Origin: Blastocatellia bacterium
GTDB taxonomy: Bacteria > Acidobacteriota > Blastocatellia > UBA7656 > JADIYM01
Direction of reading: 5' to 3'
DNA length: 64,000 nucleotides
Assembly: GCA_044224215.1 (NCBI GenBank)
Contig: JBGAKX010000002.1
Span: 10,759 to 74,758 of the forward strand
A program made the position numbers and the translations under genes. Numbering within the stretch: position 1 is the first letter of the stretch; each line of letters starts with the position of its first letter. Below are positions 9,331 through 32,992 of this stretch, one piece after another. The notes below the pieces were generated by a model. It was not told where the DNA came from, made no database searches, and worked only from the letters and a program-made list of their open reading frames with translations.

Positions 9331-9693
9331 ATGTCGAACTATGGACTCAGTGCAATTGCGCCGCGCGTCCTGGCCATTGGCTTCGCGCTCTTTCTTTCAA
9401 TCTTCGCAGCCGATGTGTTCGAGGAAAGGAGTGGCTTCTGGCAGACGATCGGAGCGCTGCTCGTGCACTTACTGCCGGCTTTCCTCGTCCTGCTCGTCCT
9501 TGCTCTGGCGTGGCATCGTGAACTTGTTGGAGGTCTGGTCTTCCTACTGCTCGGCGCGCTGTATCTTCTATTTGCAGTGGGACGCATGCATTGGTCGGCC
9601 CTTGTTGTCGTCTCTGGGCCGCTATTCGCCATCGGGGCACTCTTCGTCTGCAGTTGGTGGTTCACCCGTCATGCAGTGGAAGCGCATCCCTGA
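9331..9693 (+). CDS. small 4-TM membrane protein, unknown function
   Basis: A GGGAGGGA RBS precedes it. There are four hydrophobic segments (LAIGFALFLSIFAA..., LLVHLLPAFLVLLVLALAW...). Confidence 0.5.
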   Translation: MSNYGLSAIAPRVLAIGFALFLSIFAADVFEERSGFWQTIGALLVHLLPAFLVLLVLALAWHRELVGGLVFLLLGALYLLFAVGRMHWSALVVVSGPLFAIGALFVCSWWFTRHAVEAHP

Positions 9694-9750
9694 TGAACGA
9701 TTCGTCGGTGCTCGCTCATACAGGGTGCTCCGCGGCGCCGCTCAGCTGTA

Positions 9751-9836
9751 GCGTCAACGGAGCGCGCGCAGCGAGGGTTGATCGGTTATCCCGACATTGG
9801 TCGCGCGCCCGCCGAAGCAGTGCGTTGGCCCGCGGT
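9751..9836 (+). repeat. attC-like repeat
   Basis: CGTCAACGGAGCGCGCGCAGCGAGGGTTGATCGGTTATCCCGACATTGGTCGCGCGCCCGCCGAAGCAGTGCGTTGGCCCGCGG. A CAAC...GTTGG inverse-core/core pair is at the ends. Confidence 0.6.
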
Positions 9837-10073
9837 ACGGCTTTGCTCCAGGTGAGCAAATGAACGAGAACAGCACCGGCCGACGGGCGGAACGTATCGC
9901 GAGCGCGGGTCACGCGGCCTTTGCTTCGACCCTGGTCGGCCTCGGAGTCCAAGGCTTGATCAAGCGCGATCTCGCGAATCCTACTGCGCCATTCTCTGGT
10001 TTGCCTTGGGCAAGAGGTAGCTACTCGTCATCGACGACGTGGCGGCCTGGCAGCCCGGCCGTATACTCTGGGC

Positions 10074-10388
10074 ATGAGAATCGATCCTGATCACGACGCC
10101 ATACGGCGCACTCGCGCACGGGCTCTCGGAGCCGTAGCCATTGGAGCACAGTCGTCGGGTGCGACGGCGGCCGGCGCTCTCGCGATCGGCGCCATGGCCG
10201 TCGGTGCGGTGGCCATTGGGGCGCTGGCTATCGGCCGTCTGACCGTCAAGCGCTTGTCCGTCCGGCGATCCCGCATCGACCGACTGGAGATCGGCGAGCT
10301 GACCGTGGGCCGACTTCAGGTCGAAGAACTCGTCGTAACGAAGAGGTACGTCGTGCCGGTCGACAACGCCGACAGGGATTCCTTGTGA
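10074..10388 (+). CDS. small low-complexity protein with GA(L/V)AIG repeats and a periodic R/L/V segment
   Basis: ALGAVAIGAQSSGATAAGALAIGAMAVGAVAIGALAIGRLTVKRLSVRRSRIDRLEIGELTVGRLQVEELVV. GC3 is moderately high. No family was recognised. Confidence 0.3.
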   Translation: MRIDPDHDAIRRTRARALGAVAIGAQSSGATAAGALAIGAMAVGAVAIGALAIGRLTVKRLSVRRSRIDRLEIGELTVGRLQVEELVVTKRYVVPVDNADRDSL

Positions 10389-10475
10389 AACATTGGTGAA
10401 CAGGATCGACAGGATTCGACTTCTATCCTGTCCATGCTGGTCATCGATGTTGACTGAGCTCGTTCCGACGTCGAC

Positions 10476-11210
10476 ATGATCTACATCTGCGTGAGGAAGA
10501 CGACGGACTGGGATGACCGAGCGACGTTTCTCAGTCAGCTGAGCGAGGACTTCAGACCAAAGGTCGAGGTCTGGGACGCGACCTTCACGATGCCGTTCCA
10601 TCGCTTTCGCTCCAGGATCAAGGAGATTGCGCAGCTCAATCTCAGCGAGGTCCGGGGTGCCCGGCTCGCCGAGCTCGACGACGTGCCCGACGGGAGCGTC
10701 GTCGTTCCCATCGATGACGACGACTGGCTTGCGCCCGAACTTGTCACCGTCCTGGAGAACGAGCTCGAGGGCAACGTGACCGGATACCACTGGGAGAAGG
10801 ACATCCTGGAACTTCCCCCCAGGATGGTCAACAAGGCAGCGCGCTTCGTGCTGTACACGCTCCTGCGCCGTCCGCGCGTGATATGGACGTGCTCCACGAA
10901 CAGCTACGCACTCGTGAAGAGGGACGCGATGCGCCACCCCTTGATGAGCCACGTCGCCGCGAGCGCCTACTTCGACGGGCAACCGAACGAGGTCAAGCGA
11001 ATTGGCCGCCACCTGAGCATGATGAACAGGAGCCTCGCCTCGCAGACGTCGATGGGTTGGCGCAAGCCCGGTGTGACGAGGAGTGAGTTGACTGCCAAGT
11101 TCCATCGCTACCGGAAGCTCTACGCGGAATTCGAGCATCCGGAAATGGCCTGGACTGGCCGCTACGTGAAGATGATGGCGGACCTGATGGCCGAGTTACA
11201 CGTCAAATAG
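10476..11210 (+). CDS. hypothetical protein (244 aa)
   Basis: GC3 bias is strong and the sequence is not low-complexity. The overlapping large - strand ORF is R/H-rich antisense. Confidence 0.55.
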   Translation: MIYICVRKTTDWDDRATFLSQLSEDFRPKVEVWDATFTMPFHRFRSRIKEIAQLNLSEVRGARLAELDDVPDGSVVVPIDDDDWLAPELVTVLENELEGNVTGYHWEKDILELPPRMVNKAARFVLYTLLRRPRVIWTCSTNSYALVKRDAMRHPLMSHVAASAYFDGQPNEVKRIGRHLSMMNRSLASQTSMGWRKPGVTRSELTAKFHRYRKLYAEFEHPEMAWTGRYVKMMADLMAELHVK

Positions 11211-11306
11211 GCGCGGCGACTTAGCTGCGTTCCCGCGGAGGCAATCTGGCGGATGGCGATGGCGGTGGAGTAACGTTGCAGACACTGAGCCTTGAAAGGT
11301 GGTGAA

Positions 11307-11612
11307 ATGATGGTCACGAAAGCACTCTATGTCAGTCTGAGAGCCAAGCCCGGGAAGGAAGCGGATGTCGAGGCGTTTCTCAAGGGCGGCCTCGCGCTGG
11401 TGAACGACGAGCCGGAAACGACGGCGTGGTTCGCGATGCAGATGGGTCCGGCCACGTTCGGAATATTCGACGCGTTTCCTGACGACGCGGGGCGTGATGC
11501 ACATCTGGCTGGGCGCGTTGCGGAGGCGTTGATGGCAAAGGCCGGCGAGCTCTTGGTAGAACCGCCGGCAATCCACAAGGTCGACGTCATTGCAGCGAAG
11601 CTGCCTGCCTGA
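11307..11612 (+). CDS. antibiotic biosynthesis monooxygenase (ABM) domain protein
   Basis: MVTKALYVSLRAKPGKEADVEAFLKGG...FGIFDAFPDDAGRDAHLAG. An AAAGGTGGTGA RBS precedes it. Confidence 0.7.
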   Translation: MMVTKALYVSLRAKPGKEADVEAFLKGGLALVNDEPETTAWFAMQMGPATFGIFDAFPDDAGRDAHLAGRVAEALMAKAGELLVEPPAIHKVDVIAAKLPA

Positions 11613-11682
11613 AGCGACGGGCGTAGCTCGCGACGTCCGAGGACCTTCGCCGGTACAACGCCTCCGAACTGGCGCATGCAGC

Positions 11683-11756
11683 AGAGCGTGCGCAGCCGAT
11701 CCTGATTCGTACATCCGGCATTGGTGGCGCGCGCCGGTTCACGGAGCGCGTCAGGC
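11683..11756 (+). repeat. attC-like repeat, slightly diverged
   Basis: AGAGCGTGCGCAGCCGATCCTGATTCGTACATCCGGCATTGGTGGCGCGCGCCGGTTCACGGAGCGCG aligns closely to the repeat at 9751. Confidence 0.5.
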
Positions 11757-11774
11757 GTCAATACATAGGAAGGT

Positions 11775-12443
11775 ATGAAAATGGCACGCGTCCGAGTTGA
11801 GAGCTTTACCATCTCGCTTGACGGATACGGAGCTGGTCCGAATCAGGACCTCGGAAATCCGCTCGGCGTGGGCGGAACGGATTTGCACCCGTGGTTAGTC
11901 TCGACACGCACGTTCCAACAGACCCTATTCGGGGTCGACGGTGGCACAACGGGGATCGATGACGACTTCGCTGCGCGGGGCTTCAAGAATGTTGGCGCCT
12001 GGATTCTCGGAAGAAACATGTTCGGACCGATTCGCGGTTCCTGGCCCGACATGAACTGGAAAGGATGGTGGGGGGACAACCCTCCCTATCACGTTCCAAC
12101 GTTCATCTTGACTCATCACGCGCGCCCGCCCATCCAGATGGAAGGCGGAACAACATTCCACTTCGTCACGGGCGGGATTCACGAGGCGCTTGACCGGGCG
12201 CGCGAGGCAGCCAATGGCACGGATGTGCGCATTGGCGGCGGGGCGAACACGATCCAGCAATATCTTCGTACGGGCCTGATCGATGAGCTGCACGTCGCCA
12301 TCGCACCGGTCCTGCTGGGCGGCGGAGAGCGACTCTTTGAGGGGATTGACATGCGCGCTCTCGGATACGAATGCATACAGTTCGTTGCGTCGGAGAAGGC
12401 CACGCATGTTGTGCTCCGGCGCCACGGGCACCGTGACGCCTAG
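11775..12443 (+). CDS. dihydrofolate reductase-family protein (RibD_C)
   Basis: MKMARVRVESFTISLDGYGAGPNQ...IDELHVAIAPVLLGGGERLF. An AGGAAGG RBS precedes it. Confidence 0.75.
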   Translation: MKMARVRVESFTISLDGYGAGPNQDLGNPLGVGGTDLHPWLVSTRTFQQTLFGVDGGTTGIDDDFAARGFKNVGAWILGRNMFGPIRGSWPDMNWKGWWGDNPPYHVPTFILTHHARPPIQMEGGTTFHFVTGGIHEALDRAREAANGTDVRIGGGANTIQQYLRTGLIDELHVAIAPVLLGGGERLFEGIDMRALGYECIQFVASEKATHVVLRRHGHRDA

Positions 12444-12444
12444 C

Positions 12445-12538
12445 GGCGATTGAACCGGGTCGGGCGCCGCGGACATTGAAGGTAGCCAAGATTTGGTGGC
12501 GGCTTCGCGCCCGTTGAACCTGATCGCTGGGCGCGGGT
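12445..12538 (+). repeat. attC-like repeat, diverged
   Basis: ...ATTTGGTGGCGGCTTCGCGCCCGTTGAACCTGATCGCTGGGCGCGGG matches the right half of the family. Confidence 0.35.
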
Positions 12539-12563
12539 CATATCACCTTTGGAGTGGAGAGAA

Positions 12564-13019
12564 ATGAATAGGGCGATTCTCGCAGTCGCAGTATTGGTTC
12601 TCGCGGCAATACCATCGGCGATGACCTGGGCCAGGCAAGAGAGTAAGAGCGTCGTCGTCTTTACCCCGGAGCACGTGCGGTGGTTCACGCCGCCCTACTA
12701 CAAGGACGGGCGGCAACGGGCGCAGTTGTATGGCGACTCAAGTCAGGGCGGAGCGTGGGTGGATCGGGTGAAGATACCCGCCGGCGGGCGTGTCCTCGCG
12801 CATACACACCCGCACGACGAACTGGTTACAGTTCTCGAAGGGACCTGGTATCTGGGTGAGGGGACGAAGTTCGACCCGACTAAGCTGACGGGCTACCCGA
12901 CAGGGAGTTTTATCGTCATCCCGGCCGGCACCCCACATTTCGTAGCTGCGAAGGACGGTGCCGTGATAGTTCAGTTGAGTGGCGCTGGCAAATTCGGCAC
13001 GGACTACCTTGAGAAGTAA
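12564..13019 (+). CDS. secreted cupin-domain protein
   Basis: Signal peptide is MNRAILAVAVLVLAAIPSAMTWA. The cupin motifs are AHTHPHDELVTVLEGT...PAGTPHF. A GGAGTGGAGAG RBS precedes it. Confidence 0.7.
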   Translation: MNRAILAVAVLVLAAIPSAMTWARQESKSVVVFTPEHVRWFTPPYYKDGRQRAQLYGDSSQGGAWVDRVKIPAGGRVLAHTHPHDELVTVLEGTWYLGEGTKFDPTKLTGYPTGSFIVIPAGTPHFVAAKDGAVIVQLSGAGKFGTDYLEK

Positions 13020-13054
13020 GCGAATACAATCTTTGGCCCATCCGAGAAGCGCCG

Positions 13055-13134
13055 AACGAACGCGCGCAGCTGACGGTGATCGATTATCCTTTGGTGGATC
13101 GCACGAGACCGGTGAATCAGCGCGCTATGTGGCC
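13055..13134 (+). repeat. attC-like repeat
   Basis: GAACGAACGCGCGCAGCTGACGGTGATCGATTATCCTTTGGTGGATCGCACGAGACCGGTGAATCAGCGCGCTATGTGGCC. Confidence 0.6.
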
Positions 13135-13175
13135 ACATCCGGGCAGGTATCGCCGTGGTCAAAAGGAGGCGAGCA

Positions 13176-13871
13176 ATGCCGCTGCGTCACAACGAACGTC
13201 ACCGATCGGAACGAATTGGATGGCTTCGGGCCGCAGTTCTTGGCGCCAACGACGGCATTGTCTCAACGGCGAGCCTCGTCTTGGGTGTTGCAGCCGGGGG
13301 CGCTACACGGAGCGGTGTGGCGATCGCCGGTGTCGCCGGCCTTGTCGCGGGCGCTATGTCGATGGCGGCTGGCGAATATGTGTCGGTCAGCTCGCAGGTG
13401 GACACTGAAGACGCTGACCTGGCGACGGAGCGTCGGGAACTGGCGACCGATAACGCCTCCGAGCGATTGGAGTTGGCCGCAATCTACGTCGCGCGAGGCG
13501 TCGAGCGGGCTCTCGCACAACAGGTTGCCGATCAATTGATGGCGCGCGATGCTCTCGGGGCCCACGCACGGGATGAACTGGGGATCTCGGAAATCACGCG
13601 AGCCCGACCAATCCAGGCGGCACTAGCGTCCGCGGCAACGTTCTCTGCGGGTGCCGCACTGCCGCTGCTCGTCGCGCTCGTGGTCCCTGCCAGCGTATTC
13701 GCTCCGGCGGTCACGGGAACCTCGCTCGTGTTCCTGGCAACGCTCGGCGGGCTCGCCGCGCGAACTGGCGGCGCATCCGCAACAGTGGGTGCGATGCGGG
13801 TAACCTTCTGGGGCGCGCTCGCGATGGCGCTTACGTATGGCGTTGGCGCACTCTTCGGTGCCGTAGTGTGA
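13176..13871 (+). CDS. VIT1/CCC1-family (vacuolar iron transporter-like) membrane protein
   Basis: RIGWLRAAVLGANDGIVSTASLVLGVAAGG fits the VIT family. An AAGGAGG RBS precedes it. Confidence 0.75.
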   Translation: MPLRHNERHRSERIGWLRAAVLGANDGIVSTASLVLGVAAGGATRSGVAIAGVAGLVAGAMSMAAGEYVSVSSQVDTEDADLATERRELATDNASERLELAAIYVARGVERALAQQVADQLMARDALGAHARDELGISEITRARPIQAALASAATFSAGAALPLLVALVVPASVFAPAVTGTSLVFLATLGGLAARTGGASATVGAMRVTFWGALAMALTYGVGALFGAVV

Positions 13872-13936
13872 GATCCGGCGCATAACACGTGATACGCTCG
13901 CACACTGCCCTCTCAACGCTACTGAAAGGAACCAAT

Positions 13937-14245
13937 ATGGCAACAGCACTCGCGCTCTACAACACCCCGACGAATCCTGCCGAATTCGACGCGTACTACT
14001 TGCTGAAACACGCACCACTCGCGAAGGGTCTCCCTGGATTGCGCTCCTACGAGATTAGCGCCGGAGCTGTGCTGACTCCTGCCGGGTCGGCCCCGTATCA
14101 CTTGATCGCGGTCCTACGATTCGACACGATGAGTGACCTTCAGGCTGCGCTAGCTTCGCCGACCGGGCAAGAGGTTGTGGCGGACCTGGAGAACTTTGCA
14201 ACAGGCGGCGTCTCGGTGTTGCTCTTCGACGATCAGCCCGTCTGA
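13937..14245 (+). CDS. EthD-domain-like small protein
   Basis: MATALALYNTPTNPAEFDAYYLLKHAPLAKGLPGLRSYEIS...LENFATGG. An AAAGGA RBS precedes it. Confidence 0.55.
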   Translation: MATALALYNTPTNPAEFDAYYLLKHAPLAKGLPGLRSYEISAGAVLTPAGSAPYHLIAVLRFDTMSDLQAALASPTGQEVVADLENFATGGVSVLLFDDQPV

Positions 14246-14345
14246 TCTTTGTCCGTACGCCCGTGTAGTCCGTGTACCTGCAACGCGGTCACAATGGTGC
14301 GCGGCAGAAGCAGGCGCAATCAGAACGCCGCCGAACCAGCGACTC

Positions 14346-14432
14346 GAGCGGAGCGCGCGCAGCTGAAGTTGATAGGTGATCCCATGGTTGGTCGCGCGCG
14401 CCCTGTCAATCAGAGCATACGGCGCGCTCGCC
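14346..14432 (+). repeat. attC-like repeat
   Basis: GAGCGGAGCGCGCGCAGCTGAAGTTGATAGGTGATCCCATGGTTGGTCGCGCGCGCCCTGTCAATCAGAGCATACGGCGCGCTCGCC. The outer GAGCGCGC / GCGCGCTC boxes are inverted repeats. Confidence 0.6.
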
Positions 14433-14494
14433 TTTAATCACAAAACCACACCCATTGGTGGCAATCGCGGATTCTGATCGTACTGGAACAGGCC

Positions 14495-14782
14495 ATGTGT
14501 AGGAACATCAAGACCCTCTTCAACTTCGAGCCACCAGCGACCGAGGAGGAGATCCGTGCAGCCTCGCTCCAATTCGTTCGCAAGCTCAGCGGGTTCACGA
14601 ATCCATCGCGAGCCAATCGGGCGGCCTTTGACCGCGCGGTCGAGGAGGTAACTGTTGTTGCCGCGAGGTTGATCGACTCGTTGGTGACAACGGCCGAGCC
14701 CAGAGATCGCGCGATTGAGGTGGAGCGACTCCGTGCGCGAGCCGCCAGTCGATTCGGTCGGAATCCATCGGGCGGCCGATGA
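14495..14782 (+). CDS. DUF2277-like small protein
   Basis: MCRNIKTLFNFEPPATEEEIRAASLQFVRKLSGFTNPS is a conserved N-terminal motif I associate with DUF2277. Confidence 0.55.
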   Translation: MCRNIKTLFNFEPPATEEEIRAASLQFVRKLSGFTNPSRANRAAFDRAVEEVTVVAARLIDSLVTTAEPRDRAIEVERLRARAASRFGRNPSGGR

Positions 14783-14825
14783 ACGCCCGCGCGGTTCGAA
14801 TCGTATCCGCAACGGAGCGGCACGA

Positions 14826-15266
14826 ATGACACAACCCACAATATCGGGCGTCTCGCCGTTCTTTATTGTTGCCGATGTCCGGGCAACGCTCGCGTCTTAT
14901 CGAGACGCGCTGGGTTCTGAAGTCACGTTTCGAGGTCCTGCGCCTGATGACGAATTTTTCGGAATTGTCCGGCGTGATGGGGCGATGATCATGTTCAAGG
15001 CGCTGGGCGAAGTCTCAGGCGGCAAAGAAGTCGTCGTCGAACCAGTCCCGAATTACAACCGTAAACCAGCCTTTAGCTGGGATGCGTATCTCGAGGTCCC
15101 TGATCCGGACGCGTTGGCCACGGAGTTCGCATCGCGAGGCATTCGTTTCTCGGCTCCTGTCGGGGACAATGACGATGGTCTCAGGGGCTTCGTGATCGAG
15201 GACATCGACGGTTACGGGTTGTTCTTCGGGGATCTTCGAGCATCGACCGAACGGCGACATGAGTGA
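14826..15266 (+). CDS. VOC/glyoxalase-bleomycin resistance family protein
   Basis: MTQPTISGVSPFFIVADVRATLASYRDALG...GFVIEDIDGYGLFFG. Confidence 0.7.
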   Translation: MTQPTISGVSPFFIVADVRATLASYRDALGSEVTFRGPAPDDEFFGIVRRDGAMIMFKALGEVSGGKEVVVEPVPNYNRKPAFSWDAYLEVPDPDALATEFASRGIRFSAPVGDNDDGLRGFVIEDIDGYGLFFGDLRASTERRHE

Positions 15267-15323
15267 CAAGACGCTCCTGGGACACGGTTTGCCACGCTGA
15301 CCGATCGGCAGTACGCTCACGTC

Positions 15324-15893
<570 letters not shown>

Positions 15894-16009
15894 TCGTGTG
15901 CGCCCGTGGACGCCGCCTGTTCGGCCGACAGACCCACGTCACCGCCGATATCGATGCCCCGTGTTGCCCATGGGCCAAGGACCATCACTCGAGCCGCAGG
16001 AGGAACACC

Positions 16010-16459
16010 ATGCTCGTTGAAACACAGGTGACCATCAACGGATCCAGGGCGGCGATCTGGGCCGCGATCACCGACATCGAGAACGCCTCGAAAACCATCA
16101 GCGGAATCGACAACATCGAGGTTATCGAAAAACCGGCAAACGGGCTCGTGGGCCTACGGTGGCGAGAGACCCGAATGCTATTCGGCAAACCAGCCACGGC
16201 GGAAAAGTGGATCACAGATGCTGTTGAGAACGAGTTCTACAAGACCAGAGCGGAAGACAATGGATTTGTATTCTTGTCCACCATGAGTATTTCAGAGAGC
16301 AGTGACGGCATTACATTGACGAGCGCACATGATTCCAAGCCTCAAGGCATCGTGGCAAGAATGATGTCGATCCCCATGACATTATTCTTCAAGGGCGTGG
16401 CGAAAAAGGCCCTCCTGCAGGACCTGAACGATATTAAGGCCGCGGTTGAACGGGCGTGA
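16010..16459 (+). CDS. SRPBCC superfamily (polyketide cyclase/dehydrase-like) protein
   Basis: MLVETQVTINGSRAAIWAAITDIENASKTISG... An AGGAGG RBS precedes it. Confidence 0.65.
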   Translation: MLVETQVTINGSRAAIWAAITDIENASKTISGIDNIEVIEKPANGLVGLRWRETRMLFGKPATAEKWITDAVENEFYKTRAEDNGFVFLSTMSISESSDGITLTSAHDSKPQGIVARMMSIPMTLFFKGVAKKALLQDLNDIKAAVERA

Positions 16460-16900
16460 TCGATTGCGGGCTGACCACGGGATATCGCGTTCGCGGTTAG
16501 CACAGGTGATGCCAAGCGTTCGGCGACGCTCAATGCCTGAGGGCTCGAATTCAGGCAACCGAGATCCCATTCCCTCTCAAACGTAGGATCTCTCTGCAGG
16601 ATGCTCTTCCAACCCGCAAGCGTACCCCGTATCGTGACGGAAGGAGCCTTGTGGCAAGGTTGCACAACGAATCCGAGATAGGCACAGTAGGACCACGGAA
16701 CTGTCGCTTCCTTCGGGTAGAAGGGTTGGCGGATTGCTTTGGGTGCACATGGGGCACCGCGCCGAATGGGCGGGCCACCGGACGCCGCGCAACGGGTCGT
16801 CGGTTTCACCTGCTGGGCTCACGCGGCGCCGGCGCCAGTACCTGATGTTCGGGCCGCAGCAGAGACATTCCTCTCACCACCACCGCGCATCGGAGGTTAC

Positions 16901-17287
16901 ATGAAACGAGTCACTGGCATCGGCGGCATCTTCTTCAAGGCCAAAGACGCTCCATCACTGCGGGCATGGTACAAGCAGCACCTTGGAATCGACGTTCAGG
17001 TCTGGGGCGGAGCCGCCTTCGATTGGACCGACGCCGAGGGCAAGCCGGTTGCAGGCACCACTGCCTGGTTGATCAACCCGCAAGAAAGTGATCACTTTGC
17101 TCCGAGCTCTGCTTCCTTCATGGTCAACTACCGAGTGGAAGACCTTCACGCCTTGGTCAAGGTATTGAAGGAAGAAGGCTGCAATGTGCTCGAGAAGATT
17201 GAAGAATCCGATTTTGGAAAGTTTGCCTGGGTGATCGATCCAGAGGGAAACAAGGTCGAGCTATGGGAGCCGCCTCAAGGCCAATGA
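16901..17287 (+). CDS. VOC/glyoxalase family protein
   Basis: MKRVTGIGGIFFKAKDAPSLRAWYKQHLGIDV...FAWVIDPEGNKVELWEP. A GGAGG RBS precedes it. Confidence 0.7.
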   Translation: MKRVTGIGGIFFKAKDAPSLRAWYKQHLGIDVQVWGGAAFDWTDAEGKPVAGTTAWLINPQESDHFAPSSASFMVNYRVEDLHALVKVLKEEGCNVLEKIEESDFGKFAWVIDPEGNKVELWEPPQGQ

Positions 17288-17385
17288 GCCGGCACGCTTG
17301 TCACGGCCGCGAACTGAGGGTCGTCACGTACCGCCAGAGGGGTTGAACGCAAGCACCTCGACTTGAAGCGGGGTCCGCAGAAGGT

Positions 17386-17874
17386 ATGAAGACGGAGCTC
17401 CAAAGGCTGGAAGAGCAGCTCGAGCGGGCACTCGAGGGAGAGGCGTGGCACGGCCCCTCCGTGCTCGAAGTGCTCGAAGGTGTCAGTGCGCACCAGGCCG
17501 CCGCGCATCCTGTCGCGGGCGCGCACAGCATCTGGGAGCTGGTTCTGCATCTGAGCACCGACTATGGGCTGGTTCTGAGACGGCTCGGTGGGGATGGCAG
17601 GCAGCTGACCGACTCTGAGGGATGGCCCGAGGTGCCTGAACCGAGCGAAGTGAACTGGAGTGAGTCCGTGCGAAAGCTGAAACTGCTCAACGCCGAGCTC
17701 CGGCGGGCAATCGGGAGCTTTCCTCCCGAGCGTCTGGATGAACCGTTGGTGCCTGACGTGCCCTACACGGCATACACGCAGTTCATTGGCGTAACGCAGC
17801 ACCATCTCTATCACGCAGGCCAGATGGCGCTCCTGAAGAAAGCGCTCGGATCAGCCGATCCCGCCACGCCGTAG
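17386..17874 (+). CDS. DinB/YfiT-family (DinB_2) protein
   Basis: GAHSIWELVLHLSTD...QHHLYHAGQMALLKK. Confidence 0.7.
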   Translation: MKTELQRLEEQLERALEGEAWHGPSVLEVLEGVSAHQAAAHPVAGAHSIWELVLHLSTDYGLVLRRLGGDGRQLTDSEGWPEVPEPSEVNWSESVRKLKLLNAELRRAIGSFPPERLDEPLVPDVPYTAYTQFIGVTQHHLYHAGQMALLKKALGSADPATP

Positions 17875-18224
17875 CCGAGCTGGCGATTCGAGTGACGCGC
17901 CCTACGCATATCGCAGGTGGATGAAAGCAGGGTCTTCCACGGAAAGACACTCTTCGCAGATTCCGTGTCCAGTGTCCTCAGAGGCTGCGACGACGTGCGA
18001 AACAGAATGACGTAGGCATCCGGTGAGGGCGGGCAGTCGCACTCAACTCCTCGAGCAGTGCGAAGGTGAGGAGAAGGAGAGTGACCGGAAGCCGTGCCTT
18101 CCACGCTTCCAGTCACTCGTGGCCGGCGCGCGTGAGCGCAACACTCTATGGCTGCAACGCGTTCGACACTCGGCGCCACGCGTGCCGCAGATCTCGGCAA
18201 TAGCCACTCTCTGGACTCAGGCCG

Positions 18225-19091
18225 TCAGAAATCGGTCATGACCCTATTGATGGCTTCCGCCCCCAGTTGTTCGGCACGCGCCGTAAGATGCGTGTATACA
18301 CTGGTGGTCGTTGGCGAGCTGTGCCCCAGATACTCCTGTATCAGCCGCAGGTTCACACCTGCTTCGAGCAAATGAGTCGCCCAACTATGCCGGAGCGTGT
18401 GGACGGAAGCGCGCTTGTGGATGCCGCTCCGCTTGAGTGCCGCGCGGAACGCGTGCTGCACACTGCTCGTGTGCATCGGCGTAGTCGAGGTTGCCAGGTC
18501 CTTGTGCTCTCTTCCCGCGGACGGAAAGATCAGCACCTGGTTGGCATGCATCATACAGTGCTCACGCAGCAGCTCGACCGTCCGCGAAGGCAAAGGGACA
18601 TAGCGATCCTTGTTACCCTTGCCGTGACGCACGTGGATCATCATCCTCGCGATGTCAATATCGGCTACCTGCAGATGGGTCCCTTCCTGCAGACGCAGTC
18701 CGCACGAATAGATCGTCGAAAGACAGACCCTGTAGCTCGACGACCGAACCAGCGACAGAATCGTGCGTACCTCGTCGGCGCCGAGGACGACCGGAAGCTT
18801 CCTTTCACGAGGCGGCCTCACGAGCCTGAACGTCGCGACGCTGCGATTGAGTGTGTGCTCGTAGAAGAATTTGATCCCGCACAAGGCGACGGTGGTCCCG
18901 CTCCGGGACCATTTCTTGACATTCCTGATGTAGAGGAAATACTCTCGGAGTTCTTCTTCCGTAATCAGGTCGGGCGATTTGTTGAAATGCTCGGCGAGTT
19001 GGCGAACAGCCCGAACGTACATTTCCTGTGTGCGTTCGGACAGGCCGCGGAGTTGAAGACACTCGATCATTCTCCTTCGTAGTTCTGTCAT
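18225..19091 (-). CDS. tyrosine site-specific recombinase (phage-integrase/XerCD-like, SAM-like N-domain)
   Basis: LSERTQEMYVRAVRQLAEHF is the N-terminal SAM-like domain. Catalytic motifs are GLRLQEG, HGKGNKDRYVPL, HTLRHSWATHLL and LGHSSPTTTSVYTH (R..K..HxxR..H..Y). At 288 aa, the region between the KGxKDR and HxLRH boxes appears about 30 aa shorter than in IntI1, so the IntI additional domain is apparently absent. Confidence 0.85.
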   Translation of the reverse strand: MTELRRRMIECLQLRGLSERTQEMYVRAVRQLAEHFNKSPDLITEEELREYFLYIRNVKKWSRSGTTVALCGIKFFYEHTLNRSVATFRLVRPPRERKLPVVLGADEVRTILSLVRSSSYRVCLSTIYSCGLRLQEGTHLQVADIDIARMMIHVRHGKGNKDRYVPLPSRTVELLREHCMMHANQVLIFPSAGREHKDLATSTTPMHTSSVQHAFRAALKRSGIHKRASVHTLRHSWATHLLEAGVNLRLIQEYLGHSSPTTTSVYTHLTARAEQLGAEAINRVMTDF

Positions 19092-19235
19092 GGCTACACC
19101 TCCAAATAGAATTCGCGTTTCCGTTGGAAAGTGTAATTGCGCGGATATTCTTGAATGAGAATCGAGCCGGAACCTCGCGGACGGGCGCTCGATCTGCGCA
19201 AAGCGCTCTAGAGGGTGTCACGCATGTGTCGTCCA

Positions 19236-19290
19236 TGTTGATTGTGCGCGCCCGCCGAGTCAGCGCGTTGGGCGTCGCATTCAACCCCGA
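19236..19290 (+). repeat. simple attI-like site (right-half of repeat family) next to the recombinase start
   Basis: TTGATTGTGCGCGCCCGCCGAGTCAGCGCGTTGGGCGTC carries a GTTGGGC core. Only the right half of the attC-like family is present. It sits 145 bp from the recombinase ATG and 28 bp before the first + cassette. Confidence 0.45.
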
Positions 19291-19317
19291 AACTGCCGGT
19301 GCGAGAAGAGAGGCAAT

Positions 19318-19728
19318 TTGTTCGCAATCAAGGCCGACCTCCGCGATTCAAAGGCAAAGTCCTTTGTGTTTCGCGAGCAAAAGACGATGTACGGTGGCAA
19401 GGACATCGCCAAGGGTGACTTGGTCTTTGTCTTCGCGAGCGAAAACGAGGGCGGTCCGGGTCTGGTCGCACGTGGCGTCGTCACATCTGCCGTTGCGAGT
19501 CCTAAGATACCCGGGGGCATGCGGCAAACGCCTCGTGTGAGCATCACCATCCGACGCACCGCGCTCGCGAGGCGTCGCCTTGGACGGAATGAGCTCAAGG
19601 TGTTTTCCACCTGGAAGGATGGTCGACCCGAGACCGAGCTCAACTTCAAGTTCTATCGTCAAGCAACGAACAAGATTGTGGGAATCTCCGATGAAGCGGC
19701 AGCTTTCCTCCAGGGGTTCTTTTCGTAG
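19318..19728 (+). CDS. hypothetical protein, possibly PUA-like (EVE/ASCH-type) fold
   Basis: A TTG start has an AGAGAGG RBS. KGDLVFVFASENEGGPGLVARGVV is reminiscent of an EVE-like beta-barrel. The assignment is tentative. Confidence 0.4.
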   Translation: MFAIKADLRDSKAKSFVFREQKTMYGGKDIAKGDLVFVFASENEGGPGLVARGVVTSAVASPKIPGGMRQTPRVSITIRRTALARRRLGRNELKVFSTWKDGRPETELNFKFYRQATNKIVGISDEAAAFLQGFFS

Positions 19729-19794
19729 GGCCGACTATTGAATGGCCACGTTAGCGCTCCGTTTGTCCAGAATGATGGCGAATTGGCGGACGCG

Positions 19795-19822
19795 GCTGCG
19801 CGCGCGCGTCCGTTGACTCAGC
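19795..19822 (+). repeat. attC-like remnant (right-half)
   Basis: GCTGCGCGCGCGCGTCCGTTGACTCAGC. Confidence 0.35.
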
Positions 19823-19866
19823 TCGTCGCAGTGCCCAAACTGGGATGCGAGCATTGCGAGACCCTG

Positions 19867-20262
19867 ATGAACCGAAGCACAAGACTGCGCGTTGCCCGTC
19901 CTACGGACCGTCTCGACGAGGTCGTGCAGTTCTACGTCGCTGGTCTCGGTCTTTCCGTGTTGGGCTCATTCAATGATCACGATGGATTTGATGGTGTAAT
20001 GATCGGAGTTGCGAACGCGCCGTACCATCTTGAGTTCACTCGGCACCACTCGCACGAGGCCGGGCGCGCGCCGACCCAGGACAATCTGCTCGTGTTCTAT
20101 CTCCCCGACGAGCACGAATGGCAGGCCGCGGTCGACCGCATGGTCGCTGCCGGATACGCTCCCGTTCCCTCGTTCAATCCGTACTGGGATCTGAACGGAC
20201 GCACATTCGAGGATCCCGACGGCTACCGCGTGGTGCTTCAGAACGGTCCTTGGGCTGGATGA
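19867..20262 (+). CDS. VOC/glyoxalase family protein
   Basis: MNRSTRLRVARPTDRLDEVVQFYVAGLGL...FEDPDGYRVVLQ. An internal start was chosen downstream of the repeat remnant. Confidence 0.65.
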   Translation: MNRSTRLRVARPTDRLDEVVQFYVAGLGLSVLGSFNDHDGFDGVMIGVANAPYHLEFTRHHSHEAGRAPTQDNLLVFYLPDEHEWQAAVDRMVAAGYAPVPSFNPYWDLNGRTFEDPDGYRVVLQNGPWAG

Positions 20263-20457
20263 AACTACGGTCGATCAAACACGCCGATTCAGCCATCGGG
20301 ACAGTCGAACTCGCGCAGGCAGCGGAGCGCGCGCCAGCCAAATCGTGTCACGCCGATGCGCCGTTCTTCGCGTCGGAGTTGAATGTGCCGGTCCGAAACT
20401 TCGAGACCGCGAACAAGTAGTAGCATAAGCTCGTTCAACCGGCGTGGAGGCCCGACA

Positions 20458-21024
20458 ATGGCGAATACGAACTCTCGCGTAACGATACACATGGTGGCGA
20501 GCCTCGACGGCTTCATCGCGCGAAGCGACGGACGCGTGGACTGGCTCGAGACCTCAGACACATTCGAGGGCGGGGAGACCATGTCCCCGGAGTTCGTGGC
20601 AGAGTTCCTCAAGACGATCGACTGCTACGTGATGGGATCGCGAACCTATGAAACCGCGCTGGGGTTCGAGGCCAAGGGATTCGGGTGGTCTTACGGTGAC
20701 AAGCCAACCTTCGTCCTCACAAGTCGCGACCTGCCACGGACAAGGGATACCGTCGAGCTTTACTCGGGGGACCTTGCGCGACTGGTAAATGAACGATTGA
20801 AGCCAGTCTTCCGGAGCATCTGGTTTGTCGGAGGGGGTGCGGTCTCCGGTGAATGCCTTCGCCTCGGGCTCGCCGACGAGATTCGATATTCGATAGTGCC
20901 CGTCCTCATTGGCGATGGAATTTCATTCTTCGACGGGCTCGACAAGGACGTCGCCCTGCACCTTGTCGAGGCAAAGGCCTACAAGAATGGCATGGTGGCG
21001 CTTCGCCACGAGGTGCGGAAGTAG
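20458..21024 (+). CDS. dihydrofolate reductase-family protein (RibD_C)
   Basis: MANTNSRVTIHMVASLDGFIARSDG...GLADEIRYSIVPVLIGDGISFF. A GGAGG RBS precedes it. Confidence 0.75.
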   Translation: MANTNSRVTIHMVASLDGFIARSDGRVDWLETSDTFEGGETMSPEFVAEFLKTIDCYVMGSRTYETALGFEAKGFGWSYGDKPTFVLTSRDLPRTRDTVELYSGDLARLVNERLKPVFRSIWFVGGGAVSGECLRLGLADEIRYSIVPVLIGDGISFFDGLDKDVALHLVEAKAYKNGMVALRHEVRK

Positions 21025-21062
21025 TCCGGGCCGATAGGGTTATGTGCCCCAAAGGAGATCCC

Positions 21063-21623
21063 GTGTCCGAGTCCGAGCTCTTCTGCCCGAAGTGCGGCTC
21101 CGAAAGCACCGGCGACATCCGGTATTGTCGGCGATGCGGTACGAACCTCGAGGTCGTCACGAAGGCGATGTTGGTTCCCGCTCTCGCCGACGACGAGCTG
21201 GCGCGAGCGCAACGGGCCTTCAGGATGCGGCTCGTACGCGGACTCGGTCTTCTCGTGCTCGCGGCCGGCAGCGGAAAGGCGCTCGTCGGCCTCATCATTG
21301 CTGCTCTCGCTTTTGCGACCGGGCCCCTCTCGCTCTGGGCGGTGCTTGGCCTCATCCTGTTCGGCTTTGTCCCTGCCGGCTTCGGGGCCTTTGCGGTTCG
21401 CGATCTGCTTCACGCCTACGAGCTGAAGAAGGATCCGCGTGGCGCGCTTTCGTCGTTGCCAAGTCGACAGGCTCTCGAGCTGGCCGGAGCCGAAACACGC
21501 GCGTTGGACGCGTCGCGGCTGGAGTACCTCGAGCCGCCAGCGAGCGTCGCCGAGAATACGACCCGATCGCTCGACAGCTCGACGGACGGGGAGAGAAACG
21601 TGCGGCGGTCCGAGCTCGAATAA
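21063..21623 (+). CDS. zinc-ribbon domain membrane protein
   Basis: An AAGGAG RBS lies 5 nt before a GTG. The N-terminal zinc ribbon is CPKCGSE...YCRRCG. Two hydrophobic helices follow. Confidence 0.55.
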   Translation: MSESELFCPKCGSESTGDIRYCRRCGTNLEVVTKAMLVPALADDELARAQRAFRMRLVRGLGLLVLAAGSGKALVGLIIAALAFATGPLSLWAVLGLILFGFVPAGFGAFAVRDLLHAYELKKDPRGALSSLPSRQALELAGAETRALDASRLEYLEPPASVAENTTRSLDSSTDGERNVRRSELE

Positions 21624-21806
21624 GCACAGCGTCGCACACAGGGACTTCGACTCGCCGCGCTGCTTCAACGTGCTCTGGATCTCCGTTGCGCCGAGGCGTG
21701 GGTTCTCACCAATCGGCAGAACGCACCTGCAATGCGGTTGTACGCTTCGCTCGGCGGGAAAGAGGGACCCTCCGGCGATGTGATGTTCACCTTCAAACTG
21801 CCATAA
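21624..21806 (+). pseudogene. GNAT acetyltransferase C-terminal remnant (about 45 codons, no start)
   Basis: ...LAALLQRALDLRCAEAWVLTNRQNAPAMRLYASLGGKEGPSGDVMFTFKLP* continues in frame immediately after the TAA of the upstream gene. This is a typical GNAT C-terminus with no N-terminal half. Confidence 0.4.
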
Positions 21807-21935
21807 CATTGTGTTATCTGTCTGGCCGCTGAACAAGCGCGTTCGGCCCCAGCCGGACAAGGCCCGCTGCAAGGCCCCCGCCGCAGAGGATTCGTGACCT
21901 GAAAGCGCGTGCAGGCGCAGCTTTTGGAGCAAATC

Positions 21936-22637
21936 ATGGCCAAGACAACGACGTTCCATGGCGACGTCTCACGACGAGACTTCCTGGTGGCTGGTGCTCT
22001 GGCGACCGGTCTGTACGGCTCACCCGCGTCCGCGCAGCCTTGTGCGGCGCCAACGTCGAGATTAGCGCGAGGATCAACGATGGATCTCGAACGCTTCGTC
22101 GATGACTGCATTGCCGCGAACAAGGAAGCTGAATCGCAAACGGCGGTCCTCGAAGTGCTTGCTCGCGCCGTGCGCGATTCGGCGGCAGTAAGCGCGGCCG
22201 TTGGCGAACCACGGGAAGCGGGGTTGCGCGTCCTTCATCGATCGACGACGTTGACCATCTTCTGTGCAACGTGGACGCCCCGAATGAGCCTGATGCCGCA
22301 CAATCACCTGATGTGGGCCAATATCGGAATCTACACCGGCCGCGAGGACAACATCCTGTGGCGAAGGGGCTCTGGGCGTATCGACGCATTCGGCGCCAAG
22401 GCGCTCTTTCGCGGTGACGCCGTCGCCCTGCCCGCGGACGTGATTCACTCGGTAACGAACCCGCTCGTGCGATTCACAGGTGGTATCCACATCTATGGCG
22501 GCGACTTCTTTGCAACACCTCGCAGGCAATGGGATCCGGAAACCATGGTCGAAGAGCCGTCCAACGGTGACGTGATTCGCGCCTTATTCAACCGTGAGAA
22601 CGAACTCCTGCGGCGTTGCGGCCAGGGGTCTGACTAA
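21936..22637 (+). CDS. Tat-signal cupin-like protein (cysteine-dioxygenase-like double-stranded beta helix)
   Basis: The twin-arginine motif is SRRDFLVAGALATGLYGSPASAQ. ...LMPHNHLMWANIGIYTGRE...GGIHIYGG is cupin-like. A GGAG RBS precedes it. Confidence 0.5.
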   Translation: MAKTTTFHGDVSRRDFLVAGALATGLYGSPASAQPCAAPTSRLARGSTMDLERFVDDCIAANKEAESQTAVLEVLARAVRDSAAVSAAVGEPREAGLRVLHRSTTLTIFCATWTPRMSLMPHNHLMWANIGIYTGREDNILWRRGSGRIDAFGAKALFRGDAVALPADVIHSVTNPLVRFTGGIHIYGGDFFATPRRQWDPETMVEEPSNGDVIRALFNRENELLRRCGQGSD

Positions 22638-22656
22638 CGGCCGCCGGAGGATCCGC

Positions 22657-23046
22657 ATGAGGCGCACCTGGACGATCATTGGGGTTTCCGACGTGCAAGG
22701 CAGCGTTGCATGGTACCAGTCGCTGCTTGGACTGCCGCAGACGGCTCCCGCCCATGACTACTTCGGGCAGATTCTCGACTCGGACGGAACGGTATTGCTC
22801 TGCCTGCATGAATGGGGTGCTCACGAGCATCCCACCTTGATGAGCCCCGAGCACGCCCAGCCAGGCAACGGCCTCCTGTTGTTCCTTCGTGTCGATGATT
22901 TCGATTCAGCGCTGCCAAGGGCCCGGGCTCTTGTGACTCGCCTCGAAGAGGAGCCCCATGTAAACCCGAGCACTGGAACATCGGAGTTTTCACTCCGGGA
23001 TCCAGACGGGTACTACGTCACGATCAGTGCGCTCACTCCGGCATGA
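22657..23046 (+). CDS. VOC/glyoxalase family protein
   Basis: MRRTWTIIGVSDVQGSVAWYQSLLGL...FSLRDPDGYYVTI. A GGAGG RBS precedes it. Confidence 0.7.
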   Translation: MRRTWTIIGVSDVQGSVAWYQSLLGLPQTAPAHDYFGQILDSDGTVLLCLHEWGAHEHPTLMSPEHAQPGNGLLLFLRVDDFDSALPRARALVTRLEEEPHVNPSTGTSEFSLRDPDGYYVTISALTPA

Positions 23047-23059
23047 CAAGCAATTGTGT

Positions 23060-23110
23060 CGGAGTACACACAGCGAGGGTTGATCGGATCAGGTCCCGAC
23101 ACGATTCGTA
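23060..23110 (+). repeat. attC-like remnant (left half)
   Basis: GGAGTACACACAGCGAGGGTTGATCGGATCAGG. Confidence 0.35.
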
Positions 23111-23115
23111 ACGTC

Positions 23116-23460
23116 ATGGCCAACTGGTACTCAAGGCCGGTCTTCTTTGTCACTGACGCGCGCGCGTCGATGGATTTCTACCGTGACAAGCTGGGCTTTT
23201 CACTCGACTGGAACTATGAGGAAGACGGCCGCCCTTACGTGTGCCAGGTAAGTCGGTTTGGCTTCGAGCTCATTCTCGCCGTTGATTCGTCGAAGGCCGG
23301 TAACGGAAGGGTGTTCATATCGCTCGACGCCGCACAAACGACTGCGCTGCGCGGCGACTTCGAGCGGAACTGCGTTGACGCACGCGATGCTCGCTGGGGA
23401 ATGCCAATTATCGAAGTCCTGGATCCAGACCGAAACGAACTGTATTTCTCGCCACCCTGA
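23116..23460 (+). CDS. VOC/glyoxalase family protein
   Basis: MANWYSRPVFFVTDARASMDFYRDKLGF...IIEVLDPDRNELYF. Confidence 0.65.
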   Translation: MANWYSRPVFFVTDARASMDFYRDKLGFSLDWNYEEDGRPYVCQVSRFGFELILAVDSSKAGNGRVFISLDAAQTTALRGDFERNCVDARDARWGMPIIEVLDPDRNELYFSPP

Positions 23461-32920: not shown

Positions 32921-32992
32921 CACGTTGAACGGGTTGGCAGGTTGTCGTATCGATGCTTGCGCGCGCCACTTGATACTGGTCGTTGGGCGGCG
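32921..32992 (+). repeat. attC-like repeat, diverged
   Basis: GTTGAACGGGTTGGCAGGTTGTCGTATCGATGCTTGCGCGCGCCACTTGATACTGGTCGTTGGGCGGCG ends with a GTTGGGC core. Confidence 0.4.

Follow-up and report, generated by a model that had tools for sequence, protein, structure and literature searches.

What is a gene for a tyrosine recombinase doing in the middle of an array of gene cassettes? In the 64-kb stretch of DNA analyzed here (the window), an open reading frame (ORF) of 288 amino acids at 18225-19091 lies on the minus strand, among cassettes that are read from the plus strand. The initial annotation of this locus preferred to see in it a novel, short IntI-like integrase that drives cassette capture, and named as a fallback an inserted recombinase, such as those found on IS91-family elements. 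It is the fallback that the evidence described below favors. The gene is very probably the integrase gene of a degenerate, two-gene insertion sequence (IS) of the IS91 family that went into an attC of a chromosomal cassette array, the host probably being a member of the Blastocatellia (Acidobacteriota). As part of the same explanation, the element would have entered that one attC at its inverse core site (RYYYAA|C, termed R''), pointing against the direction of the cassettes.

To begin with the protein, it consists of two Pfam domains, Phage_int_SAM_4 and Phage_integrase, and all six catalytic residues are present (R133, K158, H231, R234, H257, and Y266), which confirms the full set of XerCD/IntI-clade motifs first read from the letters of the sequence. 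This RKHRHY set is common to all Xer-like enzymes and therefore does not discriminate IntI. The placement of the protein relative to IntI and Xer rests instead on curated hidden Markov model (HMM) scores and on matches to solved structures in the PDB. The initial annotation had proposed an alignment to IntI, XerC, and XerD profiles, and the outcome is that IntI fits best, that every score is below its cutoff, and that the I2 insertion is missing. Specifically, the top curated model is TIGR02249 (IntI), whose match falls into two stretches and scores 191 bits (cutoff, 265), while PRK15417, another integron integrase model, yields 130 against 435. The Xer models are sub-cutoff as well (XerA, 181 bits; XerC, 157 against 335; XerD, 153 against 330). 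TIGR02249 is also the top model for seven of eight diverse homologues, and the scores of the eight (186 to 200) are all sub-cutoff; the suspected affinity to IntI is thus borne out for the family, always under the cutoff. Among solved structures, the best match is VchIntIA/IntI4 (2A3V; E=9e-37). It is split into two blocks, between which residues 179-205 of the recombinase (27 aa) stand opposite residues 181-241 of IntI4 (61 aa), so that about 34 aa of the IntI-specific region, I2, are absent. The segment had been estimated to be about 30 aa shorter than in IntI1, and this holds. The XerA structure 5HXY matches almost as well, in one block. The I2 helix is needed by IntI for the recombination of folded, single-stranded attC sites (PMC4792948, PMC7790495). 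Its absence therefore argues against a single-strand mechanism of the IntI type, not against recombination of double strands.

Could the gene simply encode a housekeeping XerC/XerD recombinase for dimer resolution, or the integrase of a phage or island? The XerA, XerC, and XerD models and structures do all match it, but the scores for XerC and XerD lie far under their cutoffs, phage genes and an att-tRNA context are lacking, and the gene sits within the ends of an IS. An origin of this kind is thus extremely improbable. No dif-like site was identified for the recombinase, and no second tyrosine recombinase was found in the 64-kb window.

What company do the relatives of this protein keep? A protein search returned more than 8,000 homologues, of which the best 120 are 63-99% identical to the recombinase; nearly all of these 120 are exactly 288 aa long, at about 75% identity. 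In 77 of 80 loci from GTDB genomes, an ORF combining the domains Zn_Tnp_IS91 and Y2_Tnp starts no more than about 70 nt past the integrase stop. Two of the other three loci stop at a contig edge, and the third has a truncated transposase. The 80 loci span Acidobacteriota, Desulfobacterota, Chloroflexota, Planctomycetota, and others, and on long contigs the integrase always precedes the transposase ORF, with stop and start codons often overlapping. The homologues that head such two-gene elements are about 55-92% identical, and the elements are roughly 2.4 kb long (median, 2426 bp). One metagenome-assembled genome (MAG) carries at least 11 loci of the element on a 5.3-Mb contig, and eight aligned copies from that contig have sharp common boundaries and unrelated flanks. 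An annotated example from an isolate is the pair Haur_5165/Haur_5164 on pHAU01 of Herpetosiphon aurantiacus, in which Haur_5165 is 54% identical to the window recombinase. Judging from these sequences, the recombinase family is the first gene of a two-gene IS91-family IS, made up of an integrase and a Y2 HUH transposase. The fallback of the initial annotation is supported by this linkage to a transposase and by the multiple copies. Its preferred reading, a novel integrase that captures cassettes, does not agree with homologues that are borne on ISs or with a spacer beside the gene that turns out to be an IS left end.

The ends of the complete elements are themselves reminiscent of integrons, which the initial annotation had not foreseen. 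At the left, elements begin G|TTGAACTAAGCGC. At the right, they end with GCTTAGTTCAAC, 2-3 nt, a stem of about 16 bp with a variable loop, and then TTAATACG|TTRRRY. The stem has one bulged base, on its 3' arm, and the whole right-end site measures 56-92 nt. Covariation backs this stem, with pairing in 93.6% of cells, against 29-43% in slid controls, and compensatory changes in 10 stem pairs; none of 500 shuffles reached the observed score. Sixty-four complete elements carry both ends. A G precedes the crossover in 52 of these 64, and positions +3 to +6 read R-G-G-C; the TT directly after the crossover was fixed by the search pattern for the 64 elements. No target duplication was seen. The consensus of the joints equals the integron core consensus, GTTRRRY. 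If the two ends were joined in a circle, the joint would read GTTGAAC, the exact complement of the internal GTTCAAC, and the predicted circle junction, as read from the end sequences, is ...TTAATACG|TTGAACTAAGC. With a TTGAAC start, an attC-like hairpin at the end, and a GTTGAAC circle joint, the element follows the logic of a gene cassette with its attC.

How much of such an element is left in the window? An IS nucleotide profile built from 14 complete elements matches 19207-18132 over profile positions 9-1078 (E=2e-256) and 18120-17962 over positions 1226-1391 (E=6.9e-13), while positions 1392-2445 have no match in the window. The left end is therefore kept from IS position 9 on; what is missing is the 8-nt left tip, 148 positions inside the transposase gene (tnp), the last two-thirds of tnp, and the entire right end. 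Along the minus strand, the copy starts with the noncoding left end at 19092..19207 (profile positions 9 to about 125), from which the terminal 8 nt, TTGAACTA, have been deleted. These 116 bp, conserved in the IS profile, are all that separates the attC remnant described below from the ATG of the integrase. Next comes the intact integrase gene at 18225..19091 (288 aa, IntI/Xer-like, without I2), followed by two fragments of a decayed Y2 transposase gene. The first, at 18132..18224, extends to profile position 1078 and has 80% nucleotide identity to the tnp start of a relative, L092; by analogy with L092, its putative GTG start lies at 18207. The second, at 17962..18120, corresponds to profile positions 1226-1391 and is matched by blastn to about codons 88-128 of the tnp genes of L010 and L002. 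A gap of 148 positions in the IS profile separates the two. At the protein level, tblastn with two full transposases detected no transposase in the window, and the remnant was recovered solely by the nucleotide profile. A different arrangement, in which the recombinase gene is nested in a single attC with its left half at 18150-18215, was ruled out, because what occupies those positions is the decayed beginning of tnp.

What lies on either side of the remnant? On the far side of the transposase fragments, the plus strand carries a cassette ORF of the DinB_2 family at 17386..17874, so named from the Pfam match of the identical gene in L001 and L087. At its end, 17873..17905 may be the left half (R'', spacer, and L'') of the attC of the DinB cassette. 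By eye, this stretch aligns with the left half of the attC copy at 14331 at 17 of 23 positions; the attC profile gives just E=24, the IS profile gives no match, and blastn-short gives noise. A comparison of 17868-17965 with attC and with the IS right end likewise returned noise only. On the near side, the plus strand at 19208..19275 has a remnant of the targeted attC. The first nucleotide of this remnant (C TAG...) is the inverse-core-site C. Its L'' region is about 20 nt short, and its right half, L' plus R', is intact. The core site R' of this attC (GTTGGGC) occupies 19267..19273, with the cassette boundary G|TT between 19267 and 19268. Beyond it, the ORF of the next cassette (19318..19728, plus strand) encodes 136 aa with no Pfam match and also neighbors the integrase in L088, L090, and L091.

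The closest complete relative, L092 (P0002), is 92% identical in amino acids and 90% in nucleotides, and the start of the tnp gene behind its integrase gene is intact. At its left end, L092 adjoins an attC that belongs to the same family as those of the window. Read in the direction of the cassettes, the junction is ...GCGCTTAGTTCAA|CTAGCGATTGCACCGGAGCGCGC...GCGCGTTGGGTGGC (that is, GTTCAA|CTAG...). At the same junction, the window reads ...GCGCT|CTAGAGGGTGTCACG...GCGCGTTGGGCG, which is the L092 junction minus TAGTTCAA, an exact deletion of 8 nt. Since the two junctions agree but for the lost tip, the "attI-like site" next to the gene is the scar of the attC that was targeted.

The attC family itself lies on the plus strand, its members are about 100 nt long, and its consensus is GCCGCCGAAC..CGGAGCGCGCGC..loop..GCGCGCGCCCG..GCGCGTTGGGCG. 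A covariance model of the family (R1) finds 12 full copies in the window, all on the plus strand between 270 and 14427, at 26-96 bits; downstream of 14427 there are partial copies only. None of the Rfam families was found anywhere in the window. With a sequence profile, 19236-19275 corresponds to attC model positions 62-101 of 103 (E = 9e-5), which is the right half (L' plus R') only. The full covariance model gives 12 bits (E about 1) at 19208-19275, where, of the foldable R''-L''-loop-L'-R' palindrome, only L', R', and part of the loop are present. The sequence profile marks additional half-sites at 15868-15925, 19796-19826, 20306-20334, and 23046-23089. The 11-mer GCGCGTTGGGC occurs exactly at 19263-19273, though by itself it is not above chance (10 matches versus 5.1 expected). 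Several details of the initial annotation stand: a right-half-only copy of the repeat does lie 145 bp from the recombinase ATG, the spacer in between is slightly AT-richer (54.2% GC versus 60.5% for the array), and plus-strand cassettes do start shortly after the half-site, the next ORF beginning at 19318. What does not stand is its description of 19236-19290 as attI-like. An attI site has in common with attC just the 7-bp core. The half-site is homologous to the right halves of attC over 40 nt, not over the core alone, and so is not attI-like; the spacer, for its part, is the IS left end.

Might the locus be a genuine integron-like module all the same, with a novel short IntI, an attI-like site at 19236-19290, and downstream cassettes that it has captured? 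The gene is divergent from the plus-strand cassettes, a GTTGGGC core lies in between, and IntI comes first among both the HMMs and the PDB structures. Against this, the site is homologous to attC far beyond the 7-bp core, the spacer is the left end of an IS, and a decayed transposase gene follows the ORF. The homologues are multicopy and borne on ISs, and the IntI score is sub-cutoff with I2 absent. Finally, the opposite, upstream side of the gene has 12 intact attC sites, where an integron would have none. A module of this kind is consequently very unlikely.

If the gene belongs to an IS, is its position in an attC, and its orientation against the cassettes, an accident of this one locus? With the attC model of the window, nine genome loci were found to lie within attC arrays, and at these loci every attC is on the strand opposite the integrase gene. 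At six loci (L002, L007, L008, L009, L012, and L017), the flanks, read by eye, carry the RYYYAA half of R'' on one side of the IS and the C on the other, which shows that the insertion divided an attC within its inverse core site. Metagenome contigs were also scanned for the left-end pattern, which gave 99 different left flanks 120 nt or longer, 85 of them ending in G. In 28 of the 99, the last bases of the flank are the 3' edge of an attC-like hairpin starting RYYYAAC; among 9780 GTT sites taken as controls from these contigs, the share was 3.5% (Fisher P=1.5e-17). In one of these 28, L115, the hairpin belongs not to a host attC but to the right end of a second IS copy, a head-to-tail junction that is indirect evidence at most of transposition or a circular intermediate. 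The other 71 insertions are not beside an attC-like hairpin. A criterion of attC-likeness based on 5/7 R-box complementarity missed obvious attC sites; it was replaced, and the result was cross-checked by profile. The top-strand attC profile of the window has five matches among the pooled genome and metagenome flanks, all of them antisense to the integrase gene and all starting at model positions 9-15, at the junction. Since these five copies and the genome loci in arrays are all antisense to the cassettes, a minus-strand gene beside plus-strand cassettes reflects the insertion orientation of this IS family, not an integron. The intI-attI-cassette geometry claimed for the locus is therefore the usual insertion mode of the family.

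These same flanks bear on another idea, namely that the recombinase is the cargo of an ordinary gene cassette moved in by a host IntI. Complete elements do open with TTGAAC and close with an attC-like hairpin and a final ...G, and a study of Shewanella calls an IS91-like element beside attC "a new gene cassette structure" (PMC9229058). The junctions, though, are at R'' on the opposite strand and not at the IntI crossover in R', 71 of the 99 copies are away from attC-like hairpins, and the eight aligned MAG copies have differing, unrelated flanks. There is accordingly little chance that the element is such a cassette.

How, then, might the present locus have come about? The favored history is that of an IS that inserted into attC and subsequently suffered deletions. 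These would have taken away 8 nt at the left tip, 148 nt within tnp, the final two-thirds of tnp along with the hairpin right end, and some of the attC. The order of the deletions is partly guesswork, as is some of the deletion history as a whole, because the left breakpoint region, 17875-17961, matches neither attC nor IS. Lacking its tip, tnp, and right end, the element is no longer self-mobile. For intact relatives, the rolling-circle mechanism established for the IS91 transposase (reviewed in PMC5714925) offers a model. The Y2 transposase would make a rolling-circle, probably single-stranded intermediate, which would then insert at a G|TT located 3' of a hairpin. Which enzyme would recognize such a target? 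One option is that the HUH transposase recognizes a hairpin-spacer-G|TT structure that resembles its own end. The other is that the IntI-like recombinase acts on GTTRRRY sites. Either Int or Tnp may make the G|TT joints, as sequence alone fits both.

Has the integrase outlived its element for a reason? The arrangement of DinB cassette, integrase, and 136-aa cassette recurs in 5 contigs from 5 samples or assemblies at about 99.5% identity. The solo-integrase locus is on record in 12 contigs; GCA_041912095.1 is among the carriers, and one member of the cluster is labeled Blastocatellia. Compared with L092, the integrase gene has a dS of 0.34, a dN of 0.046, and a dN/dS of 0.135, similar to pairs of active elements. 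The 96-nt tnp remnant, by comparison with the same relative, has 19 nonsynonymous and 2 synonymous differences and a dN of 0.32, against 0.10-0.20 for active pairs. Near-identical strain copies of the integrase differ by 2 synonymous and 2 nonsynonymous changes, too few for a dN/dS. One pairwise comparison and a 96-nt remnant thus suggest that the integrase stayed constrained, apparently by purifying selection, after the transposase decayed. Any present role may lie in action in trans, on related elements or on GTTRRRY or attC-like sites. No complete copy of the window element at 90% identity or more was found in the data for this lineage, so there is no known partner element for a role in trans in these data.

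Such constraint invites the suggestion that the IS-derived integrase has been exapted as a solo recombinase, domesticated by the host or the array, that now rearranges, stabilizes, or captures cassettes at attC or GTTRRRY sites in the manner of a short IntI. The intact ORF next to a decayed tnp, the dN/dS of 0.135 next to an unconstrained remnant, and the conservation of the locus over five samples or assemblies would all fit, as would IntI being the best-scoring model of a family whose elements join at GTTRRRY. The gene is also the sole tyrosine recombinase in the 64-kb window, with no intI in view. On the other hand, it has no I2 region, which IntI requires to recombine folded single-stranded attC (PMC4792948, PMC7790495), and the attC sites from 14.4 to 23.2 kb are half-sites, which indicates an array in decay and not in use. 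A promoter scan found no sigma-70-like promoter on the minus strand upstream of the integrase. Moreover, selection could equally mean a role in trans for other IS copies, or the decay could be recent. Domestication is therefore a minority possibility, well behind that of a degenerate IS.

A bolder proposal takes in the whole subgroup with Int and Y2 transposase. Its members might be self-mobilizing mimics of integron cassettes, in which the recombinase joins the attC-like hairpin end to GTTRRRY with a preference for the inverse core site, on the strand of attC left unused by IntI; the solo copy in the window would then be a domesticated array recombinase. This proposal is also rather unlikely, yet worth stating for what would follow from it. 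If it is true, the subgroup would add a third class, with a mechanism of its own, to the elements that target attC, and would be a candidate relative of the ancestral source of integron integrases and attC sites.

The degenerate-IS explanation has its own consequences. As a caution for annotation, an IntI-like recombinase that is divergent to cassettes in a CALIN or integron may turn out to be orfA of an element of the IS91 type, and attC half-sites beside such a recombinase can be insertion scars. The family is of interest in its own right. It pairs an HUH rolling-circle transposase with a non-IntI recombinase that nonetheless scores nearest IntI, it has attC-like ends and joints at the integron core consensus G|TTRRRY, and about 28% of its sampled insertions are at the edge of an attC-like hairpin, antisense wherever a strand could be assigned. 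How would an enzyme lacking the I2 helix, or an HUH enzyme, recognize folded attC strands? How are the recombination sites of integrons related to the ends of ISs? Both questions are now testable, and Herpetosiphon aurantiacus DSM 785 is a cultured carrier of the family.

How does the window compare with known systems? Reports in the literature touch on this group incidentally and include IS91-XerD pairs (PMC11194056) and the IS91-like ISShvi3 adjoining attC (PMC9229058). A description of the attC-like end, the G|TTRRRY joints, and the use of inverse-core attC sites in this IS91 subgroup was not found in the literature searched, though there may be a prior one. The nearest system is the IS91-family IS with an upstream tyrosine recombinase gene, with which the window has protein family, gene order, and, from IS position 9 on, the sequence of the left end in common. 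Examples of this kind are Haur_5165/Haur_5164 and the "IS91-XerD" pairs near tetX (PMC11194056), and PGAP labels such pairs "tyrosine-type recombinase/integrase" and "IS91 family transposase." Complete relatives have the same ends; from the window copy, the transposase and right end are gone, as are the 8 nt of the left tip.

Other systems are alike in some respects and different in others. With IntI, the window gene shares the RKHRHY set, a GTTRRRY core at element junctions, and divergence from the cassettes, but it is without the 34 aa of I2 and without attI, it is borne on a multicopy IS, and its junctions are at R'' and not at R'. XerA, XerC, and XerD are similar to it in length class, two-domain architecture, and HMM scores (XerA, 181 bits), but the window family is sub-cutoff and is not single copy and chromosomal. 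Integron cassettes resemble the element in the TTRRRY (TTGAAC) start and in an imperfect hairpin end of 56-92 nt with a bulged base and a final ...G. The element differs from them in its length of about 2.4 kb, its own two recombinases, its use of the inverse core site, and its antisense orientation. Closest in habit are the IS1111-attC group and the group IIC-attC introns, which also insert into attC with a fixed orientation and position; the latter lie opposite to the direction of cassette transcription and use the folded bottom strand. Their enzymology (a DEDD transposase for IS1111-attC, a ribozyme and a reverse transcriptase for the introns) is unrelated to a Y2 HUH transposase plus a tyrosine recombinase and, unlike both, the IS91 subgroup also uses many G|TTRRRY sites that are not attC. 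As far as its sequence tells, the locus represents a known kind of element in degraded form, the IS91-family IS with an integrase gene.

The character of the attC array shifts along window positions 14400-23200. All 12 intact attCs lie at 270-14427; past this point, up to about 23200, the attCs are only half or degenerate, being represented by right halves at 15868-15925 and 19796-19826, a left half at 20306-20334, and a left half plus loop at 23046-23089. Cassette-like ORFs on the + strand run on throughout 14400-23200, and this stretch looks like the distal part of the array in decay. Far from the array, the profile of the window's attC family has two lone matches: 61628-61711 aligns to model positions 8-85 with E = 3e-5, and 32932-32990 to positions 43-101 with E = 0.005.

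What do the cassettes around the insertion carry? In the window (14715-23046) and at loci L087-L091, small proteins predominate, namely glyoxalase/VOC, DinB_2, RibD_C-like reductase, and SRPBCC/polyketide-cyclase-like proteins, and several of these families are present more than once within the same array. Sigma-70-like hexamers (CTGTCA-16-TAGAAT; 19085-19112, + strand) point out of the IS91-family (IS) remnant toward the cassette at 19318. Transcription of that cassette might thus have a promoter within the IS scar.

Among complete elements (loci L002-L212), position -8 from the crossover is an A in 47 of the 64 targets, on top of the G at -1 and TTRGGC past the crossover. At L037 (~4790-4850 and 7282-7305), one insertion adjoins sequence resembling a tRNA T-arm plus 3' end (GGTTCGATTCC), and the right tip of that element, TTACACTAATTCTTAATACG, is present in duplicate. 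L115 (574-595 and 3144-3165) holds two IS copies head to tail, and their junction, ...AATCCTTAATCG|TTGAAC, has the form expected either of a tandem dimer or of a circle junction in the assembly.

Another form of the element is a 431-amino-acid fusion, in which residues 1-171 of the integrase (Int) are joined in frame to residues 105-361 of the transposase (Tnp), a derivative by internal deletion. It is found in several copies (L002, 3619-4914 and 9637-10932; L003, 1439-2734; L014, ~974-1486), every one of which has its own IS left end. The surroundings are small-ORF arrays that include toxin-antitoxin genes (ParE, BrnT/BrnA). The fusion may be a non-autonomous derivative that is still spreading.

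Three integrase homologues (P0003, P0029, and P0045) are longer, at 387-393 amino acids. The IntI-type insertion is absent from all three; instead, their N-terminal SAM-like DNA-binding domain is duplicated in tandem.
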